The notes under the pieces were generated by a model. The model did no database searches and was not told where the DNA came from. It saw only the letters and a list, made by a program, of their open reading frames with translations. This document shows positions 1,750 through 64,000 of a stretch of DNA of 64,000 nt, piece after piece; the first letter of the stretch is position 1, and every line of letters starts with the position of its first letter. The position numbers and the translations under genes are program-made. The stretch comes from Candidatus Nomurabacteria bacterium (lineage in GTDB: Bacteria; Patescibacteriota; Minisyncoccia; Phycocordibacterales; UBA5272), in assembly GCA_037130925.1 (NCBI GenBank), contig JBAXSC010000002.1, forward strand, positions 89,185 through 153,184. Reading direction: 5' to 3'.

Positions 1750-2760
1750 ATGACAGAAGAGAATGAAAATAAAAAAGAAATAATAATAAATTTTAAAAAT
1801 TATCAAATAGATAAATTAAAAAATAATGAAAAAATATTTTTATTAAAAGTTCTTTTTTCTTATTATCAGGAAATTTTAATTACATATCGTGGTGATGGAT
1901 TATTTTATATCCCTTCCGGATTTGATGATTTAAATCATTACTTTAAGTTATTAAGAAAGAAAATTATTGAAATAATAGAAAGCGATGAAACATTTAATGA
2001 GATAAAAAATAATGATAATAAATACTCAATAATAAGTGAAATAGAAAATATATACGACACACAAGATTTTTTTTCTGTATGGGAAGAACATACATATCCT
2101 GCAATAATTTATATTAAAAATATTATTGACAATAAAGATTTATTTGAAAATAGTTTAAATTCTTATACTATTGATAAAAATGTTACAAAACTATTAGATA
2201 AAATCTCAAAAGAATTAGATGATGTAAAAGAAGTTTTTAAAGAAATAGATAAAGATTTTAGAAAAAAACTTTCTTTTCTAGAAACTCATTCTAAAGAAAA
2301 ACAAAAAGAAGAAAAAGAAACCACAATAAAACACGAACACTCTCATAAATTTGAAAATAGTATTCAAGAAAAACCACTAGATATTAATATAATAAAAGAA
2401 ACTATATTAAAAAATAAAAAAACACAAGAACCAAATGATTACCAAAAAATAAAAAAGATAGATAGAAATTTTAACGGTCTTGCTTATTGGACAGATGGTA
2501 GTATTACTTTTAATAATAAAGAATTAATATTGAGAGCTCAATTAAGAGATTTACTTAGATTATTTATAAGTAGTCCCAACAAAATAATGACATATGATGA
2601 TATAAAAGATACAATAATAAGAGCTGAGGATAGAGAGAGAACTAAAAACACAACTATTTCAAAATATATAAATGAATTAAAAGAAGAATTAAAAAAATAT
2701 ACAACGGATATTGTAATTAAAAATGAAAAAGAGACTGGATATAGAATAACTAAAACATAA
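1750..2760 (+). CDS. DNA-binding protein with C-terminal OmpR/PhoB-type winged helix
   Basis: 336-aa ORF. The C-terminal ~95 aa fit the trans_reg_C pattern (KELILRAQLRDLLRLFISSPNKIMTYDDI...ISKYINELKEELKK...ETGYRI). The N-terminal part has no recognised family. Confidence 0.6.
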   Translation: MTEENENKKEIIINFKNYQIDKLKNNEKIFLLKVLFSYYQEILITYRGDGLFYIPSGFDDLNHYFKLLRKKIIEIIESDETFNEIKNNDNKYSIISEIENIYDTQDFFSVWEEHTYPAIIYIKNIIDNKDLFENSLNSYTIDKNVTKLLDKISKELDDVKEVFKEIDKDFRKKLSFLETHSKEKQKEEKETTIKHEHSHKFENSIQEKPLDINIIKETILKNKKTQEPNDYQKIKKIDRNFNGLAYWTDGSITFNNKELILRAQLRDLLRLFISSPNKIMTYDDIKDTIIRAEDRERTKNTTISKYINELKEELKKYTTDIVIKNEKETGYRITKT

Positions 2761-55032: not shown

Positions 55033-55647
55033 TTAATTTAAAATAGGTTTTTTTATAACATCAACCACTGTTCCATTTATACTAAAATCATCATCTTCAT
55101 GTATATAAATAGGATTGAATACTTTTGTAGAATTAGGCATTAAAACAATTCTATGATTAGAGTTTCTTTCATCCACAAATCTTTTAATAGTTGCCTTGTT
55201 TTCGACAATAGCTAAAACAACATTTCCTGTTTTCGGGTCTGTATGAGTATTATCAATTATTACGAAATCTCCATTTTCTATTTTTTTACCAAAGATTTCC
55301 ATATTATTCATAGAATCACCCTCTGCTTTTATTGCAAATAAATTCTTATAATCTTTTTGGTGTAAAAGTTTTTTAGATATAGTAACAAAACCTTGAAAAT
55401 TCTGTTCAGCAAATATAGAAGCATCTCCACAATCAGCAACACCAATAACGGGTAATCTTACAAAATCATCACTCTTCATAGTTTTGTAAATATTAAATCC
55501 CTTTTTTACCAACTGTTCAATATGATGTTTTATTTTTTGAGGAGAACTAATCTTTTCTCCTATCTTATCACCTATCTCCCTCAACGTTAATTTTTCTAAA
55601 TTCTCTTTTTTTGATAATTCTAAAATTTTCTTTTGTATTTCATGCAT
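55033..55647 (-). CDS. LexA-family repressor (wHTH plus S24 peptidase)
   Basis: N-terminal LTLREIGDKIG...IKHHIEQLVKKGF; S24 domain AIKAEGDSMNN...GDFVIIDN...ATIKRF (Ser/Lys dyad); 204 aa. Confidence 0.8.
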   Translation of the reverse strand: MHEIQKKILELSKKENLEKLTLREIGDKIGEKISSPQKIKHHIEQLVKKGFNIYKTMKSDDFVRLPVIGVADCGDASIFAEQNFQGFVTISKKLLHQKDYKNLFAIKAEGDSMNNMEIFGKKIENGDFVIIDNTHTDPKTGNVVLAIVENKATIKRFVDERNSNHRIVLMPNSTKVFNPIYIHEDDDFSINGTVVDVIKKPILN

Positions 55648-57846: not shown

Positions 57847-58255
57847 AAGTAAAGATAAGGTTTTAGAAGAGTTAAAAAAAGTCCCTATAATCCAAGTAGC
57901 TTGTGAAAAAACAGGAATCTCTAGAAATACTTTTTATAGATGGAAAAAAGAAATAAAAAGTTTTTCAAAAGAAGTTGATAAGTCTATGGAAGAGGGTGTT
58001 GCATTAATGAATGATATTACCGAATCACAATTACTAAGTATGATTAAAGATAGAGACTTTAGAGCAATATCTTTTTGGCTTAGGCATAGAAATGATAATT
58101 ATAAAAATAAGATTGAAGTTACAACTAAGGAAGACTTTGAAGAACTATCACCTTCTCAGATAAATGTTGTAAAACAAGCACTTAAACTAGCCAAAATGAC
58201 TCAAATTAAAAGCATTAAAAACATAAATAAAAAATATGAATCAAATAATAAATAA
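57833..58255 (+). CDS. HTH protein, probable terminase small subunit
   Basis: N-terminal HTH IIQVACEKTGISRNTFYRWKKE. It lies immediately upstream of, and overlaps, the large terminase gene. Confidence 0.5.
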   Translation: MKRNKSKDKVLEELKKVPIIQVACEKTGISRNTFYRWKKEIKSFSKEVDKSMEEGVALMNDITESQLLSMIKDRDFRAISFWLRHRNDNYKNKIEVTTKEDFEELSPSQINVVKQALKLAKMTQIKSIKNINKKYESNNK

Positions 58256-59735
58256 AAACCTTGAAGACACAATGATTAAAGATCGTATGATTAGAATAAA
58301 TTTAACCAGAGAAAGTTTTCTTTACTTTTTCCACTTCTATTATGCTCATTATGTAAAATATGAGACAGCAGACTTTCAAAAAGAAATTATCTATAATCTT
58401 GAAAAATCAGGAACAGATAATTTATATATAGTTGCTTTTCGTGGATCTGGAAAATCTACCATGGTTACAACTGCATATCCTATTTGGTCAATTCTTGGAA
58501 AACAAGGAAAGAAATTTTGCGTTATATTCTGTCAGACTAAAGCTCAAGCGAAACAACATATGATGAATATTCGTGCAGAACTTGAAAATAACGAGGTCTT
58601 AAAAAGAGATCTTGGACCATTTCGAGAAGAAAGTGACGAGTGGGGTTCTCAGTCGCTAGTATTCAAAAAGCACGGTGCTAGAATAACTATAGCATCAAGT
58701 GATCAAAGTATTCGTGGGCTTCGCCATAATGAACATCGTCCAGATCTAATCATTTGCGATGACGTAGAAGACGTTCAGTCTACTAAAACTCGTGAGGGAC
58801 GAGATAAAACATATAACTGGCTACATGGTGAAGTTATTCCTTCTGGAGATAAAAACACAAGACTAATTATTGTAGGTAATTTATTACATGAGGATTCACT
58901 TCTAATGCGTATCAAAGAAGAAATCTCACAAGGAAGAGCAAAAGGTATTTTTAAAGAATATCCTTTGCTTGATAAAAACGAAGAATGTCTATGGCCAGGA
59001 AAATACAAAGATAAAAAAGATCTTGAAGATGAAAAATTAAAAGTCTCAAGTGAAATCTCTTGGCAACGAGAATATTTACTACGTATTATTCCAAGTGATG
59101 ATCAAGTTATCTATCCAGAGTGGATCCAATTCTACGATGATTTGCCTCATGTAGGACATAAAGCATATAGAGGAACTTATGCAGGTGTTGATCTTGCAAT
59201 ATCTTCTAATGAATGTGCTGACTCTACAGCTGTAGTTATGGCAAATATTTATGGGAGAAGAGATAAGTTGCGTATATACATTCTTCCAAATCCTATTAAT
59301 AAAAAATTAAACTTTCCTGCACAAGTCGATTTGCTGAAAGATATAAAAAATACACAAATGCCAAAATCGACAGATAAAATATTTGTTGAAAGTGTTGCTT
59401 ATCAAGAAGCTTTACCACAGATGTTAGAAATGCAAGGAATTAAAGCGGAAGCTGTTAAACCAAAAGGAGATAAGAGAACTAGACTATCTCTAACTTCTAC
59501 TGCTATAAAATCTGGAATTATTAAATTCCCTAGACATGGATGTGAAGAACTACTTCAACAGATTATAGGATTTGGAGTGGAAAAGCATGATGATCTAGCT
59601 GACGCTTTTTCACTTCTTATTAATTCAACATTAGATAAACATGCAAGAGAGGGTACTATAATCTTCGCCTTTTTAGGTATGAACGGAGAAGACGATAATA
59701 TAATTGGGTATTCAGACTATATAGATGTTGGTTAA
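58236..59735 (+). CDS. terminase large subunit
   Basis: Walker A FRGSGKST, Walker B LIICDDVED, and nuclease-domain acidic residues (AGVDLA..., EKHDDLADAF). Confidence 0.8.
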   Translation: MNQIINKNLEDTMIKDRMIRINLTRESFLYFFHFYYAHYVKYETADFQKEIIYNLEKSGTDNLYIVAFRGSGKSTMVTTAYPIWSILGKQGKKFCVIFCQTKAQAKQHMMNIRAELENNEVLKRDLGPFREESDEWGSQSLVFKKHGARITIASSDQSIRGLRHNEHRPDLIICDDVEDVQSTKTREGRDKTYNWLHGEVIPSGDKNTRLIIVGNLLHEDSLLMRIKEEISQGRAKGIFKEYPLLDKNEECLWPGKYKDKKDLEDEKLKVSSEISWQREYLLRIIPSDDQVIYPEWIQFYDDLPHVGHKAYRGTYAGVDLAISSNECADSTAVVMANIYGRRDKLRIYILPNPINKKLNFPAQVDLLKDIKNTQMPKSTDKIFVESVAYQEALPQMLEMQGIKAEAVKPKGDKRTRLSLTSTAIKSGIIKFPRHGCEELLQQIIGFGVEKHDDLADAFSLLINSTLDKHAREGTIIFAFLGMNGEDDNIIGYSDYIDVG

Positions 59736-60262
59736 TATTTTTTATAATATTCCTTACCGTCTATTTTAAGAGATACAATTTCTCCGCCTTTTCCATTTGT
59801 ATAATCTAATTTTGCATATATGCTTGATCTAAGCATTGCACCAAAACTATTTTGACTATCAACTGTTCCAAAGACAATAATATATGCTGTACCAGTTGCA
59901 CTTTCAACTTCTTCTCTTTCGCTTAAATTAAATTTAGCAGTAGACGGAGCTTTTAAAAGACCTTCGACTTGATTTTGGACAAATACTTCTGCTTCGATTT
60001 CGTGACTTTTTAAATTATTTACAACATCCATTCTTTTTTCTTCGTCAGTTTTTGGTTGAATTGTTGCTGTAGTTTCTTTTGTATTATTTACAGTTTCTGG
60101 CATTAGAGATCCTGATATTGCTAGAAATATAACGGAAAGACAAATAAAAATAACACGAATCTTTTTAAGCTCTTTTTGTTTCTTAAAAAGATTAATAAAT
60201 AGTTTTGGTTTAAAAATACCAATTACAGATATAACAAATAATATTGAAAATAATGTATACAT
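59732..60262 (-). CDS. membrane-anchored hypothetical protein
   Basis: Start set at the ATG (MYTLFSILFVISVIGIF). Two N-terminal hydrophobic segments, then a soluble domain. Confidence 0.5.
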   Translation of the reverse strand: MYTLFSILFVISVIGIFKPKLFINLFKKQKELKKIRVIFICLSVIFLAISGSLMPETVNNTKETTATIQPKTDEEKRMDVVNNLKSHEIEAEVFVQNQVEGLLKAPSTAKFNLSEREEVESATGTAYIIVFGTVDSQNSFGAMLRSSIYAKLDYTNGKGGEIVSLKIDGKEYYKKY

Positions 60263-60296
60263 AATTTGGACGGTTTTATAATTTTGATTAGGTAGC

Positions 60297-60404
60297 AAAA
60301 AACTCCTAGCCAGTTCCGGTATACCCCGTGAGGCATACCCACATCCGTTTCCAGATGTGACCGTCCAAAGTAGACTCTGACTAGGAGATCTTTACTTTGG
60401 ACGG
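60297..60404 (-). ncRNA. candidate structured RNA / leader (GC-rich multi-helix element ending in a U-run)
   Basis: Minus strand: outer helix 60379-60387/60303-60311 (9 bp with one G.U). Hairpins 60340-60345/60354-60359 and 60318-60325/60332-60339 (one G.U). 60393-60404 pairs with 60361-60372. U6 run at 60297-60302. Both mismatches are G.U only on the minus strand. Confidence 0.5.
60361..60380 (+). repeat. 20-nt repeat, copy 1 (CCGTCCAAAGTAGACTCTGA)
   Basis: 19/20 identical to 61315-61334. The core CCGTCCAAA also occurs inverted at 60265-60273 and 60396-60404. Confidence 0.85.
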
Positions 60405-60522
60405 ATATTTGAAACCATGCTTTATTGCTAAAGTTTAGGTTATTTGTAATAAATAATAGCATAATTCAAACTATTATTCTATAATTATTATATCGCAATA
60501 ATTAAAAAAGTCAGATCTATAT

Positions 60523-61251
60523 ATGCCACAAAAGAAAATAGATGAAATAACGTTAACATTTGGAACTTATATGAATCCTGGTATCTTTAATAAAGATTTT
60601 GTTAAAGGATTGAAATATCTTAAAAATTTTGATCAAAAAAGATTTAATAAATATAATAAAATATTATTAGCTATAAGTTGGTTTTCTAAAAAACTTTTAA
60701 GATACGAATTATACTTTTCTAAATTCTATAATGAAAATATATCTGATACGGAAGCATTAGAACATCATGTTAATTCTTATTTACAAGATACTGAAGCTTT
60801 AAAAAATAAATTACTTAATTATCTTGGTTCGTTAAAAAATGATCTTAAAAAGATTTATGTAAATAAAGAAGATATTGAAAAAGTTTATAAACACCTATCT
60901 TCACAAATAGAAAAATCTTTCAAGAAAGTAACACTCCTTAGTACAGAACATAGACATGGAAATTTTAGATTTTTAGATTCAGATTTAATAGAAGCTCAAA
61001 CCATGAGCATGCTTTTAGAACAAAAAAATATTCTTCCACTTTCAGCCCAAGGAATTAATTTGGTTAATGCAAGACTGGAAGAATCTCTTAAGAAATCTAA
61101 AGATAGGTGGATAAAAAATGCAAATAATAATGAATCTCAAATAATTGGAGTTGTTGAAGAAACTCTAGAAAGAACAGAAGACATGTTATACAAAGCTGTT
61201 GGAATAGAAAAAGTAATTTTTAATAACATATCTCAAAATGAAATAAATTAA
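60523..61251 (+). CDS. hypothetical helical protein
   Basis: 242-aa ORF lying between the repeat copies. No confident motif; the EHRHGNF stretch was noted but not assigned. Confidence 0.5.
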   Translation: MPQKKIDEITLTFGTYMNPGIFNKDFVKGLKYLKNFDQKRFNKYNKILLAISWFSKKLLRYELYFSKFYNENISDTEALEHHVNSYLQDTEALKNKLLNYLGSLKNDLKKIYVNKEDIEKVYKHLSSQIEKSFKKVTLLSTEHRHGNFRFLDSDLIEAQTMSMLLEQKNILPLSAQGINLVNARLEESLKKSKDRWIKNANNNESQIIGVVEETLERTEDMLYKAVGIEKVIFNNISQNEIN

Positions 61252-61314
61252 TAGTTCTGCATAGACTTAGCAAACAAATTGTTTTCTGTCATCATTAATA
61301 TATAAGAGTCTAAA

Positions 61315-61334
61315 CCGTCCAAAGTAAACTCTGA
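61315..61334 (+). repeat. 20-nt repeat, copy 2 (CCGTCCAAAGTAAACTCTGA), 11 nt upstream of the LSR3 start
   Basis: Direct repeat of 60361-60380. Its first 14 nt are a perfect inverted repeat of 60391-60404. Confidence 0.85.
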
Positions 61335-61345
61335 TATATAAACAT

Positions 61346-62647
61346 ATGAACAATCAAAGTGTGGGAAAGATAGAGAATAATATTGTATTTACAGAAGAAA
61401 AAGTTAGATATGTTTTATATGCTCGTAAATCAACTGAATCAGACGAGCAACAAGCCTTATCAATAGACTCTCAGATCAAAGAAATGACAGCCATAGCAGA
61501 ACGTCTGAATCTTAATGTTATATCTATTAAAAAAGAATCTCATTCAGCTAAAGCCTCTGGCCAAAGACCTGTATTTAAAGAATTATTAGAAGAAATAAAT
61601 AAAGGTATCTATAATGGAATACTTACTTGGGCACCTGATAGGTTATCTAGAAACGCTGGGGATCTTGGCACTGTTGTAGATCTGATGGATGAAAAGAAAT
61701 TGATTCATATTCAAACTTATGGACAGACCTTTTCTAATTCTCCTAATGAAAAGTTTCTATTAATGATTTTATGTTCTCAAGCTAAGTTAGAGAATGATAA
61801 TAAATCTATAAATGTAAAAAGAGGAATGAGAGCAGTAGTAGAAATGGGATTATTCCCAGGTAGACCCCCTACTGGATATCTACCCTCAAAAAATGTGGAT
61901 GAAAAATGTTTAGCTGTCATAGATGAACCAAGAGCAAATATTGTAAGAGAAGTTTTTGAAAAAATAGCATATCAAAATATATCAGCAAGAAAAGTTTATG
62001 ATTGGTTAATAAAAGAAAAACATTTTAAACCAATCTCTAATAAAACTTTTAGTTTAGGTAACTACTATTTAATGCTCCATAACACTTTCTATTATGGAGT
62101 TTTTGAATATCCAAAAAATGGTGGTCAATGGTATAAAGGAAAACATATACCCATAATCTCAAAAGAGGTTTTTGATTTAGCACAAAAAAATATTAAAAAT
62201 CAAACATTAAGATCTGGAAATTATGAAGATAAAGAATTTGCTTTTACAAAATTATTAACATGTTCTTATTGTGGATCTGGTATTACAGCAGATGAAAAAA
62301 TAAAGAAACAAAAGAACGGAAATATCCATAAATATATTTATTACAGATGCACTAAAGTTAGAAATAGAGATTGCGAATTTAAATCTATAAGAGAAGAAGA
62401 TTTGATTGAACAACTTAAAAATATAGTTGATACGACTGATATAAATAAAATACATATTAAAGAAAAGATATCTAATGACATCAAAAGGTATAAACTTTTT
62501 CAGGCTAAATTTTCAAATCAAAAAATTAATAATTTATTAATCAAAAATATTGATATACAAGAATATATTAAGTTTATTTTAGACAATGGGAAAATGGAAG
62601 AAAAGAGAGAGGTATTGGGATGTTTTAAAGATAAAATTAATATATAG
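61346..62647 (+). CDS. serine recombinase (short large-serine-recombinase type)
   Basis: YARKSTESDEQQALSIDSQ, PDRLSRNAGDLG, a recombinase domain, and a Zn-ribbon CSYCGS...YYRCTK. At 433 aa it lacks the long C-terminal coiled-coil of the other two. Confidence 0.88.
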   Translation: MNNQSVGKIENNIVFTEEKVRYVLYARKSTESDEQQALSIDSQIKEMTAIAERLNLNVISIKKESHSAKASGQRPVFKELLEEINKGIYNGILTWAPDRLSRNAGDLGTVVDLMDEKKLIHIQTYGQTFSNSPNEKFLLMILCSQAKLENDNKSINVKRGMRAVVEMGLFPGRPPTGYLPSKNVDEKCLAVIDEPRANIVREVFEKIAYQNISARKVYDWLIKEKHFKPISNKTFSLGNYYLMLHNTFYYGVFEYPKNGGQWYKGKHIPIISKEVFDLAQKNIKNQTLRSGNYEDKEFAFTKLLTCSYCGSGITADEKIKKQKNGNIHKYIYYRCTKVRNRDCEFKSIREEDLIEQLKNIVDTTDINKIHIKEKISNDIKRYKLFQAKFSNQKINNLLIKNIDIQEYIKFILDNGKMEEKREVLGCFKDKINI

Positions 62648-62713
62648 ATTCCACAATAAATAAACAATTTTGTACATATTAATAATATCTAATTAAAATG
62701 ATAAAATAAAAAT

Positions 62714-63364
62714 ATGAATAAGCATAATAAAAAATCAATAATAAACACAATACAAAATATTGATTGTTTAGAGGGAATAAAAAAAATTCCTGATGGAAAA
62801 GTTGATCTTATTTTTACAGACCCTCCTTATGGATTAAATAAAGCAGGTATTAAAAATGATGAAAATTTAGAAGTTTTTTATAAGATTCTGCCAGAATGTT
62901 ACCGAGTTTTAAAAGACGATGCTTTTTTTATAACTTTTTTCAGTACTAAATTTTTACCAGATGTTTTTAAAAATAACCCTTTTACATATTATTGGAATTT
63001 TGTATTGTATTGTCCAAACGGAAGAGTTTCTTCAAGTATTGGTTTTACTAAATATATGAGTTGTATTGTTTTTAAAAAAGGAAATGCAAAAATAGTTAAA
63101 AAAGGAAAAGATATTTTTGTAGACACTCCAGGTAGAATGATTGAACCTGATGAAGGTTTTATTGATCATCCAACACCAAAACCAAAAACTTTTATAAAAG
63201 ATATATTGCAAATGTTTTCAAAAGAAAATGATATTGTTTTAGATCCTTTTATTGGAAGTGGTAGTTTGGCTGTTGCTTGTAAACAAACAAAGAGAAGATA
63301 TGTAGGATTCGAAATAGATAAAAATTATTATAAATTAGCAAATACTAGATTAAAAAAATTTTAA
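62714..63364 (+). CDS. DNA methyltransferase (N6-adenine/N4-cytosine, beta-class order)
   Basis: Motif IV FTDPPYGL lies N-terminal and motif I DPFIGSGS lies C-terminal. Confidence 0.85.
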   Translation: MNKHNKKSIINTIQNIDCLEGIKKIPDGKVDLIFTDPPYGLNKAGIKNDENLEVFYKILPECYRVLKDDAFFITFFSTKFLPDVFKNNPFTYYWNFVLYCPNGRVSSSIGFTKYMSCIVFKKGNAKIVKKGKDIFVDTPGRMIEPDEGFIDHPTPKPKTFIKDILQMFSKENDIVLDPFIGSGSLAVACKQTKRRYVGFEIDKNYYKLANTRLKKF

Positions 63365-63367
63365 AGT

Positions 63368-64000
63368 ATGAAAAATAAAAAAGAAATTTTAGGTCAATTT
63401 TTTACCAAACAAGAAACTGTTAAAAAAGTTTTAGGCATACTTTTTGAATATGTTGATAATAGTAAAAAACTCTCAATCTTAGAACCGTCTTCTGGAACAG
63501 GAAATTTTATAAAAATCTTAAACGAATTAGGGTATAAAAATATAACTGGCTGTGAGATAGATCCTGAGTTAACAGATAAACCTGAAGATTTTTTTGATAT
63601 GGATTTAAATAAGAAATTCGATTTAATAGTTGGGAATCCTCCATTTACTAAATATAATCTAAAAGATAGTTATTATTATGCTTCTAAATATAAAAAATCA
63701 GAAATTTCACCAAATGAATATCTTAGTAAACAAGATATAAAAATAGATAAACATAAGATAGAAAATGTATTTATAAATAAATCTATAAAACACTTAAAAA
63801 GTGATAAGTCTTCAATAGGTTTTGTTTTACCTATATCTTTTTTTATTAAGAAGAAAAACCTAGAAACAAAAAAGAATATAGTAGAAAATTTTTCTTCTGT
63901 AATTATATATCAAGATGATAGTGTCTGGTTTGATAGAAATATACCTTGTTGTTTTGCTATTTTTACAAACAATAAAGATTTTGAAGGAAGAGTTGTTGTT
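63368..64000 (+). CDS. N6-adenine DNA methyltransferase, gamma-class (Eco57I/TaqI-like), truncated by window end
   Basis: Hand translation gives MKNKKEILGQFFTKQETVKK...ILEPSSGTGNF...LIVGNPPFTKY. Absent from the ORF track because it is open-ended. Confidence 0.8.
   Translation, partial: MKNKKEILGQFFTKQETVKKVLGILFEYVDNSKKLSILEPSSGTGNFIKILNELGYKNITGCEIDPELTDKPEDFFDMDLNKKFDLIVGNPPFTKYNLKDSYYYASKYKKSEISPNEYLSKQDIKIDKHKIENVFINKSIKHLKSDKSSIGFVLPISFFIKKKNLETKKNIVENFSSVIIYQDDSVWFDRNIPCCFAIFTNNKDFEGRVVV

Follow-up and report, generated by a model that had tools for sequence, protein, structure and literature searches.

Which kind of element is encoded by a short GC-rich segment directly upstream of a membrane-protein gene in Candidatus Nomurabacteria, and what could its role be? 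The segment lies on the minus strand of a 64,000-nt stretch of contig JBAXSC010000002.1 (GenBank assembly GCA_037130925.1, positions 89,185 to 153,184), the whole of which is referred to here as the window. A preliminary description had proposed a structured minus-strand RNA at 60297-60404, with about 50% G+C in AT-rich surroundings, as a possible regulator of the neighbouring gene; the measured G+C content is 49.1% for this interval versus 27.8% for the whole window. An Rfam scan of the window identified 60441-60318 on the minus strand as LOOT (RF03000), with 76.2 bits versus a gathering score of 46.4, E = 1.5e-12 and coverage of model positions 1-121 of 121. LOOT is a catalogued bacterial RNA family without assigned function, and the element belongs to it. 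Based on its fold, its genomic setting and the comparison of about 225 related loci, we propose with moderate confidence that LOOT is an RNA of about 150 nt, transcribed from its own promoter, which would set the expression of a variable downstream cargo gene as a leader containing sequences that mask the translation-initiation region (TIR) or release it (anti-TIR/anti-anti-TIR).

Family assignment and sample of related loci

The structured minus-strand element of the preliminary description is real, and it was the Rfam/Infernal search suggested there as a check that gave the match above the gathering score, the LOOT family itself having gone unrecognised. All features of the family are found in the window, namely P1 with an internal loop, a long hairpin, a hairpin with a GAAA loop and a last hairpin. 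To our knowledge, and according to the Rfam/Wikipedia text, LOOT has been known only from ocean metagenomes; the same text describes two pseudoknots for it. We found one strongly covarying pseudoknot, formed by the apical loop of the long hairpin P2 and the 3' tail, whose 3' strand lies beyond the 121-position model. The Rfam 14 paper (PMC7779021) names the family as a 'metagenomic-based RNA', and its alignment comes from the Weinberg/Breaker ZWD. The searched literature on LOOT presents it only as a metagenome-derived motif and gives no function, host or gene context, and the main text of the discovery paper does not discuss it.

Related loci were collected by pattern searches. The pattern CCTAAAC..GCATGG..GAAA proved too loose (120 matches, 1 real), and a pattern also requiring GTCAGAG yielded 22 matches, 2 of them real. 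The final pattern was derived from Rfam-conserved positions and demanded exact CCTAAAC, GCATGG and GTC-N7-GAAA-N7-GGGT; it gave 4 matches in IMG/VR, all genuine, at least 119 in species-representative genomes and at least 120 in metagenomes. The LOOT set comprised 244 elements with 233 unique cores, and comparisons were made on about 225 loci. All of the related loci that were checked (19/19) are Rfam LOOT matches, at 60-94 bits.

About two thirds of the at least 119 genome matches are labelled as named lineages of the Patescibacteria, or Candidate Phyla Radiation (CPR), including Saccharibacteria, Paceibacterota, Gottesmanbacteria, Woesebacteria and others among the matches listed. The other genome matches listed are unclassified "bacterium" metagenome-assembled genomes (MAGs), about 15 MAGs labelled Gammaproteobacteria/Pseudomonadales, one TM6 and a few archaeal or other MAG contigs. 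Archaea-binned LOOT contigs are those of loci L144, L148, L223, L232 and L241; the archaeal and gammaproteobacterial contigs could be mis-binned CPR or phage contigs, or reflect a wider host range. In L175, two LOOT copies (1273-1405 and 2506-2645, minus strand) are found on one Saccharibacteria contig, separated by about 1.1 kb.

Fold and strand of the RNA

The minus strand folds with a z-score of -6.5 relative to shuffles, the plus strand with -4.3. According to the Rfam alignment, the RNA begins with a 5' domain (60441-60413) in which P1, formed by AACC (60441-60438) and GGUU (60416-60413), encloses the invariant internal loop CCUAAAC/GCAUGG (60439-60433 and 60420-60415), together with the hairpin P1a (60433-60429 with 60424-60420), which carries a GCAA loop. 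The extent 60297-60404 given in the preliminary description was verified, and the additional hairpin domain on its 5' side, up to 60441 (60441-60410), had been missed there. The long hairpin P2 (60404-60361) consists of the 5' arm CCGUCCAAAGUA (60404-60393) and the 3' arm UACUUUGGACGG (60372-60361). It is followed by P3 (60359-60340), a hairpin of 8 bp with an invariant GAAA tetraloop (60351-60348), and by P4 (60339-60318) with the sequence GGUAUGCC-UCACGG-GGUAUACC. The pseudoknot joins CUCCUAGUCAG (60387-60377) in the apical loop of P2 to CUGGCUAGGAG (60313-60303) in the 3' tail, the latter outside the Rfam model, which ends at 60318, and a run of six U (60302-60297) follows the helix directly. 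The RNA of the window thereby runs 21 nt past the Rfam model, and this extension holds the covarying pseudoknot strand and the U-run.

The structural part of the preliminary description was right in its essentials, and most of its helices can be mapped onto this architecture, since its 'crossing' helix is P2 and its two small hairpins are P3 and P4. Its outer helix of CTCCTAGTC (60387-60379) and GGCTAGGAG (60311-60303), followed by T6 (60302-60297), was verified in sequence and coordinates and extends to 11 bp (60387-60377 with 60313-60303), and the crossing pair of TACTTTGGACGG (60372-60361) and CCGTCCAAAGTA (60404-60393) was likewise found as described. Both hairpins, CACATC/GATGTG and GGTATGCC/GGTATACC, are present, the first being in fact a helix of 8 bp, CACATCUG/CGGAUGUG, closed by the GAAA tetraloop. 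The imperfect pairs are G.U on the minus strand as claimed; the helices contain three of them instead of two.

For the covariation analysis, which had also been suggested in the preliminary description, a covariance model was built from the window sequence alone, with nested helices only and the pseudoknot strands left unpaired. We aligned 94 matches to this single-sequence model and counted pairs per helix. When 14 LOOTs were aligned with MAFFT, the variable helices came out mis-registered, and the alignment was left out of the counts; a seed of the window and L244 was likewise mis-registered. Over the six helices, 93.4% of cells are paired versus 36-43% in slid controls, and the observed covariation was reached by none of 500 shuffles. 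All six helices are supported. Both-side changes occur at 2/4 pairs of P1 (93% paired), 4/5 of P1a (98%), 12/12 of P2 (94.6% of cells), 7/8 of P3 (98.1%) and 5/8 of P4 (94.9%), and the pseudoknot helix, although unmodelled, is 85.4% paired with both-side changes at 10/11 pairs. Two pseudoknot positions are predominantly U.G, which would be A.C on the other strand; thus, the minus strand is the transcribed one, as the minus-strand LOOT match also indicates and as the preliminary description had argued.

The crossing topology, too, is real and conserved, both in the 94-sequence alignment and in a direct comparison of 218 loci. In each of these 218 loci the apical region of P2 forms at least 6 contiguous pairs with the tail, with a mode of 14, compared with a mode of 6-7 when the tail is matched to the apical region of another locus. 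Covarying pseudoknot types include CUCGUCGUCAG/CUGGCGGCGAG, CUCCUAGUCAG/CUGGCUAGGAG, GGUCUUCUG/CGGGAGACC and GGCCUCAUAAG/CUUGUGAGGCC. The local apical stem of P2 in the Rfam consensus drawing, which competes with the pseudoknot for the same nucleotides, is not supported by our alignment, being paired in 65% of cases versus 63% in shuffles.

A tertiary contact may complete the fold. The 11-nt receptor for GAAA tetraloops has the sequence CCUAAG...UAUGG, and the invariant loop CCUAAAC...GCAUGG of LOOT is nearly identical to it, differing in an A and a C where the receptor has a G.U wobble pair. Since the P3 loop is invariably GAAA and the internal loop is nearly the classic receptor, a tetraloop-receptor contact between the two is likely.

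Putative promoter and 3' end

An extended -10-like box, TGCTATTAT, is located at 60461-60453 and is followed by ACAAAUAACC, the presumptive start of a transcription unit of about 150 nt that ends with the U6 run (60447-60297). This 5' end was placed with the help of the -10-like box and of an ACAA motif that recurs in other loci, where the TATTAT...ACAA arrangement is also visible. In 185/223 loci, compared with 43/200 for a control region, the 55 nt upstream of LOOT contain a hexamer that matches TATAAT in at least 5 of 6 positions; for the window, a consensus scan offered CTGACT-16-TATAAT (60514-60487) as an alternative promoter. We infer that LOOT is transcribed from its own promoter, from about 60447 to 60297.

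At the 3' end, the U-run noted in the preliminary description is conserved, with at least 4 T among the 6 nt after the pseudoknot helix in 166/218 loci. A helix of 11 bp directly followed by U6 is what an intrinsic terminator displays; the arrangement is atypical, as the helix encloses the P2 3' arm, P3 and P4. A simple terminator scan of the window missed it, the enclosed 'loop' being well above 8 nt in length. The pseudoknot helix and the U6 run probably form a leaky intrinsic terminator. A simple terminator of an upstream gene was ruled out, there being no upstream gene on the same strand. Rfam types LOOT as 'Gene; sRNA' (small RNA, sRNA), and the conserved promoter-like box and terminator-like end agree with this, with the position upstream of an open reading frame (ORF) and the copies at the TIR described below suggesting a leader as well.

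A copy of the P2 arm at the cargo start site

The gene that follows LOOT in the window (59732-60262, minus strand) encodes a protein of 176 aa with an N-terminal transmembrane segment, for which there is no Pfam match and which matches phage families of unknown function (phrog_13160 at 9e-15). Across the related loci, an ORF of at least 60 aa on the same strand starts 40-100 nt after the LOOT core in 204 of 226 cases. These 204 ORFs fall into 142 unrelated clusters, and 130 of them have an N-terminal hydrophobic segment. Most are without a Pfam family; the others include Lipoprotein_Ltp, Imm_superinfect, small zinc-ribbon and DUF membrane proteins, Trypsin_2 and PG_binding. This profile points to the slot after LOOT as a prophage cargo or superinfection-exclusion slot beside the integrase gene.

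Immediately before the cargo gene, the window carries a copy of the P2 5' arm, ACCGUCCAAA (60274-60265), with an A-run before it and UU and the ATG (60262-60260) after it. The preliminary description had pointed to a further CCGTCCAAA directly before this ATG, and we confirmed this third occurrence at 60273-60265, 2 nt before the ATG at 60262; about 20% of the loci carry a counterpart made from their own arm. The exact 9-mer occurs four times in the 64 kb, always within 60265-61323, and with at most one mismatch there are 12 matches versus a shuffle mean of 4.9, a number reached in none of 100 shuffles. The P2 3' arm is thereby complementary to the 5' arm, to 60274-60265 and to a stretch at 61314-61334, to which we return below.

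An exact copy of at least 9 nt of a locus's own 5' arm was detected within 400 nt downstream in 29/221 loci, compared with 2 for an antisense and 3 for a reversed control. In 27 of these 29 the layout is that of the window, with an A-run, a copy of 9-13 nt, 0-5 nt and the ATG of the downstream ORF, some 46-76 nt past the LOOT core. The copy-bearing loci represent more than 15 different arm sequences, including CCGCUACAGUG, CCGUUCAGAGUA, CCCACGCAAGUA, CCACACCAAUG, CCCAUCCAAGG, CCAUACCUACA, CCGUCUAAGGC, CCCGCUAGA, CGGUUCAAC and others, and loci sharing one arm type have different cargo genes. With G.U pairs allowed, the 3' arm forms at least 9 contiguous pairs with the downstream region in 45/214 loci, versus 5/214 in a control with the own 5' arm. 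Thus, about 20% of the LOOT loci examined carry a TIR copy of their own arm. Shine-Dalgarno-like motifs are rarer in the copy-bearing loci (12% versus 27-36%). Further arm copies elsewhere in the loci were limited to chance-level 10-mers, the window excepted.

These observations are consistent with the following scheme. LOOT would be made as a terminated small RNA, and a leaky pseudoknot-U6 would let some transcripts read through, so that LOOT would be carried as a leader into the gene for the 176-aa membrane protein. A separate promoter between terminator and copy was rejected as -10-like boxes are not enriched there (5 observed, 3.9 expected), and co-transcription by read-through is favoured for this reason. 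Because the cargo initiation region, AAAA-CCGUCCAAA-UU-AUG, repeats the 5' arm of P2, the 3' arm UACUUUGGACGG, the proposed switching (anti-TIR) strand, could pair in two ways. Placed on the 5' arm, it would give the native LOOT fold with an open start site; placed on the start site, it would occlude it. As an anti-TIR/anti-anti-TIR leader, LOOT would set the expression of the cargo gene. In the clade of the window, the terminated RNA may moreover pair in trans with the 5' untranslated region (UTR) of the integrase mRNA. The riboregulator idea of the preliminary description is supported by the covarying own-arm copies, and expression switching by alternative pairing is the part of it that we can only infer.

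Prophage setting and the integrase gene

The window is largely chromosomal in appearance, with six scattered tRNA genes, and phage-type genes appear from about 55 kb on. A window protein of 937 aa is 100% identical to a protein of a Candidatus Nomurabacteria MAG in NCBI, whereas look-ups of three window proteins for exact matches returned none. The phage-type genes comprise an S24 repressor, a ParB-methylase, TerS, TerL, the 176-aa membrane protein, LOOT, a 242-aa ORF, the integrase and a second methylase, with no structural genes after TerL inside the window. Within a Candidatus Nomurabacteria (CPR/Patescibacteria) chromosome, LOOT occupies the lysogeny/cargo part of a prophage-type element. 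This element encodes a protein repressor as well, since the S24 CI/LexA-like gene (55033-55647, minus strand) lies about 5 kb from LOOT. A phage-database DNA search with 58000-63500 returned short methylase matches only. In 15-24 loci the ParB-methylase/TerS/TerL module is present, to one side of LOOT or the other. Genes for tRNAs are found within a few kb of LOOT in several loci (L009, 41-127; L244, 2296-2368; L236, 4651-5779; L309, 9416-9487), and these may mark integration sites of the elements.

Divergent from LOOT, a large serine recombinase is encoded at 61346-62647 (plus strand; Pfam Resolvase, Recombinase and Zn_ribbon_recom, PHROG 95). Homologues of this integrase are present in 84/225 LOOT loci, 62 of them upstream and divergent, and in 27/45 loci with at least 5 kb of upstream sequence, 25 of them divergent, which makes it the most conserved neighbour of LOOT. 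The preliminary description had passed over this prophage and integrase context and with it a copy longer than that at the cargo gene. The sequence ACCGTCCAAAGTAAACTCTGA (61314-61334, plus strand) in the integrase 5' UTR, ending 11 nt before the ATG, is complementary with one mismatch to LOOT 60380-60360, which comprises the apical end and the 3' arm, and the predicted duplex has -32.9 kcal/mol. The closest relative among the loci compared, L244, from a Candidatus Paceibacteria MAG with a 74% identical integrase, shows 28 contiguous pairs at the corresponding position, some 18 nt before the integrase start. In 51 other loci with a divergent integrase, such complementarity is at background level, so that the feature is clade-specific, and a comparably long opposite-strand arm copy was seen in no other locus examined. 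The stretch could be a target in trans or a partial duplication of LOOT.

Between LOOT and the integrase gene lies an orphan ORF of 242 aa (60523-61251, plus strand), which has no Pfam or PHROG match and no homologue in the 225 LOOT loci. L244 is without this ORF, its integrase-LOOT gap being 211 nt, and keeps sequence resembling the 3' end and stop region of the ORF, which suggests that the ORF was gained or lost at that spot lately. Short integrase-LOOT gaps of 100-250 nt hold the conserved motifs ATTAATGACRCAGA, GTCCAG and GTTGRYAAC..CTTCGCAAGG (spacers compared in L372, L298, L009 and L234). In gaps of 0.8-5.7 kb, the inserted DNA has a GTTGRYAAC-like motif at each end, with a repeat of about 45 nt in L372, and the insert in L009 and L234 is the ParB-methylase/TerS(/TerL) module. 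The GTTGRYAAC-bracketed spot that separates LOOT from the integrase gene resembles an att-type insertion site.

Alternative explanations

Several observations weigh against the proposed leader function. Promoter, termination and read-through were all deduced from sequence. In a nested-only energy model of the window, the state with P2 formed has -60.4 kcal/mol and that with the 3' arm on the start region -54.6 kcal/mol, and the isolated duplexes have -20.3 kcal/mol for P2 and -16.1 kcal/mol for the 3' arm on the TIR; the native fold is thus favoured by about 6 kcal/mol and would also form first during transcription. About 80% of the LOOT loci examined are without a TIR copy, so that anti-TIR pairing, with about 20% of loci having the copy, cannot be the core function of the family. 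The differences between copy and 5' arm amount to 5 wobble-compatible and 2 incompatible transitions, which are too few events; since the copies are exact blocks with few internal differences, pairing and DNA identity are not told apart as the selected trait. All homologues were found with the one strict pattern, in scans yielding at least 119 and at least 120 matches, and the percentages hold for that subset only. Finally, the 226 loci hold 165 distinct 5' arms of P2, and yet this hypervariable helix is almost free of G.U pairs (1.6% versus 15-19% in P1a, P3 and the pseudoknot; Fisher p about 1e-79), which a constraint on RNA alone does not predict. Given this combination, P2 may have a role at the DNA level, for example as a dyad site for the neighbouring recombinase, or whole P2 modules may be replaced in concert. 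The G.U-poor, hypervariable P2 fits the many 'cross-covariations' reported for LOOT (PMC7657543).

How, then, do other explanations fare? A stand-alone small RNA, acting in trans or structurally beside a gene that is merely adjacent and with arm copies devoid of a role in cis, appears unlikely. It would account for the -10-like box and terminator-like 3' end of LOOT, for the roughly four fifths of loci that lack the TIR copy, and for the integrase-UTR site of the window and L244, which is on another transcript and reachable in trans only; the compact fold with its GAAA loop and receptor-like internal loop is suggestive of action as a folded particle, too. However, it leaves unexplained why the position directly upstream of a same-strand ORF is fixed in 204/226 loci and why, in more than 15 arm types, the copy is placed so exactly, 0-5 nt ahead of the ATG; moreover, a trans-acting seed is not usually locked into a Watson-Crick helix of 12 bp, as the one proposed here is. 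We find it decidedly unlikely that the RNA is real and P2 with its satellite copies serves primarily as DNA, P2 being a dyad site for the recombinase and the copies half-sites or scars of cargo exchange. A serine integrase as the most conserved neighbour (84/225 loci; 27/45 with at least 5 kb upstream), a hypervariable and almost G.U-free P2 as expected of an inverted repeat in DNA, copies in the form of exact blocks, broken off abruptly where they join hypervariable genes, and differing cargo genes behind one arm type all speak for it. The geometry of P2, an inverted repeat of 12 bp with arms 20 bp apart, resembles serine-integrase attP sites, which is a lead and not a test. Measured against such a site, which adjoins the integrase gene and has dyad symmetry over about 40-50 bp, P2 lies beside an integrase gene and is a perfect 12-bp inverted repeat with a 20-nt spacer, the central 20 nt being not symmetric. 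In integrated elements such a site should be split, but P2 is unbroken in each of the 226 loci, those on chromosomal contigs of up to 1.2 Mb included, from which it follows that P2 is not the site used for integrating these elements. Insertions between integrase gene and LOOT are bracketed by another motif, GTTGRYAAC, a search for a matching half-site at the far end of the cargo genes found none, and the RNA pseudoknot with its strand-specific U.G pairs puts a constraint on the 20 apical nt that separate the arms.

A ligand-sensing riboswitch, with the pseudoknotted fold as aptamer and the terminator and anti-TIR strand as expression platform, is very improbable. The complex conserved fold with its pseudoknot and invariant loop nucleotides would suit an aptamer, as would the terminator-like helix and anti-TIR arrangement directly upstream of an ORF suit a platform, but the 204 downstream ORFs with their 142 unrelated clusters and scattered Pfam families share no metabolic theme, the slot is one for prophage cargo and not a metabolic operon, and the anti-TIR copy is missing from most loci. 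A metabolite riboswitch was accordingly rejected, as the downstream genes form no coherent regulon. We give practically no credence to the idea that the region codes for a protein of 79 aa (60462-60223, minus strand) and that the helices are incidental. An ATG-initiated ORF is present, but conservation at the protein level is not seen: tblastn matched only L244, split over two frames, and its remaining matches (E > 1e-4) coincide with the conserved RNA, whereas substitutions keep the base pairs in six helices and the Rfam match is strong. A test for a stop-free frame across the core is uninformative at such a short length, and tblastn was used instead; the suspicion in the preliminary description that the ORF 60223-60462 is spurious was borne out. 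The reading of LOOT as a leader with own promoter may be extended, though only tentatively, to LOOT as the RNA half of a cargo-expression platform linked to the serine integrase in CPR prophages. Its hypervariable, strictly Watson-Crick helix P2 would then be a programmable 'address', matched to the start region of whichever cargo gene follows and in some clades to the integrase mRNA, and would provide element-specific, immunity-like control of both cargo and integrase expression; alternatively, within the same tentative extension, P2 would double as a DNA site for cargo exchange.

Significance

The LOOT family itself is already catalogued; new are its host range, its genomic niche, the structural extension at the 3' end and the functional hypothesis. 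An orphan RNA class is now placed in CPR genomes within prophage-type regions and gains a conserved partner gene, the large serine integrase. Its structure is extended by a covarying pseudoknot-terminator, and its long helix is seen to match, with covariation, the start site of the hypervariable gene that follows. Compared with the Rfam entry, the present loci stand out by their CPR/Patescibacteria genomes, the neighbouring serine integrase, the variable cargo gene on the 3' side and the start-site match in a subset. What was an "unknown sRNA" has become a specific hypothesis that is open to mutational test. If true, the programmable-address or cargo-exchange reading would assign a function to this RNA class for the first time and bring to light an RNA-based regulatory or specificity code in mobile elements of CPR bacteria. 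Very little is known of gene regulation and phages in these bacteria, which are difficult to cultivate, so that a regulatory RNA that is widespread among them and easy to recognise would be a useful handle.

Comparison with known systems

Translational riboswitch and RNA-thermometer platforms resemble the arrangement proposed here in having a strand that is like the start region and a switching strand complementary to both this strand and the start region. LOOT differs from them in being without a coherent regulon or known ligand and in having a terminator between the fold and the start site, and most copy-bearing LOOT loci are without a Shine-Dalgarno sequence. As regards the gene slot, prophage 'moron' or superinfection-exclusion genes adjoin the integrase gene, such as Ltp of Streptococcus phage TP-J34. 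The likeness lies in a variable membrane-protein or lipoprotein gene by the integrase, with its own promoter and terminator, and Lipoprotein_Ltp and Imm_superinfect are among the families found after LOOT. We know of no moron cassette described with a conserved pseudoknotted leader RNA of 150 nt, and this is where LOOT departs from them.

Further parallels are P4 CI RNA with its seqA, seqB and seqC and the c4 RNA of P1/P7 (Rfam C4 family), antisense RNAs in phage immunity. Like LOOT, they are small structured RNAs that head an operon of a temperate phage, with an internal segment complementary to direct-repeat copies on its 5' and 3' sides, the 3' one of which overlaps the start of the following gene, and RNA and target co-vary as specificity types. 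In contrast, the fold of LOOT is a different one, its 5' copy belongs to the mature helix P2, the 3' copy is present in only about 20% of LOOT loci, and a CI-like repressor protein is present in addition; the Rfam C4 model gave no match in the window, neither at the gathering threshold nor at E <= 1. In the subset of about 20% of LOOT loci, a segment complementary to the start of the next gene and co-varying with it was found, as is typical of C4-type RNAs. By analogy, LOOT may work like C4 and P4 CI RNAs, which does not imply membership in their family.

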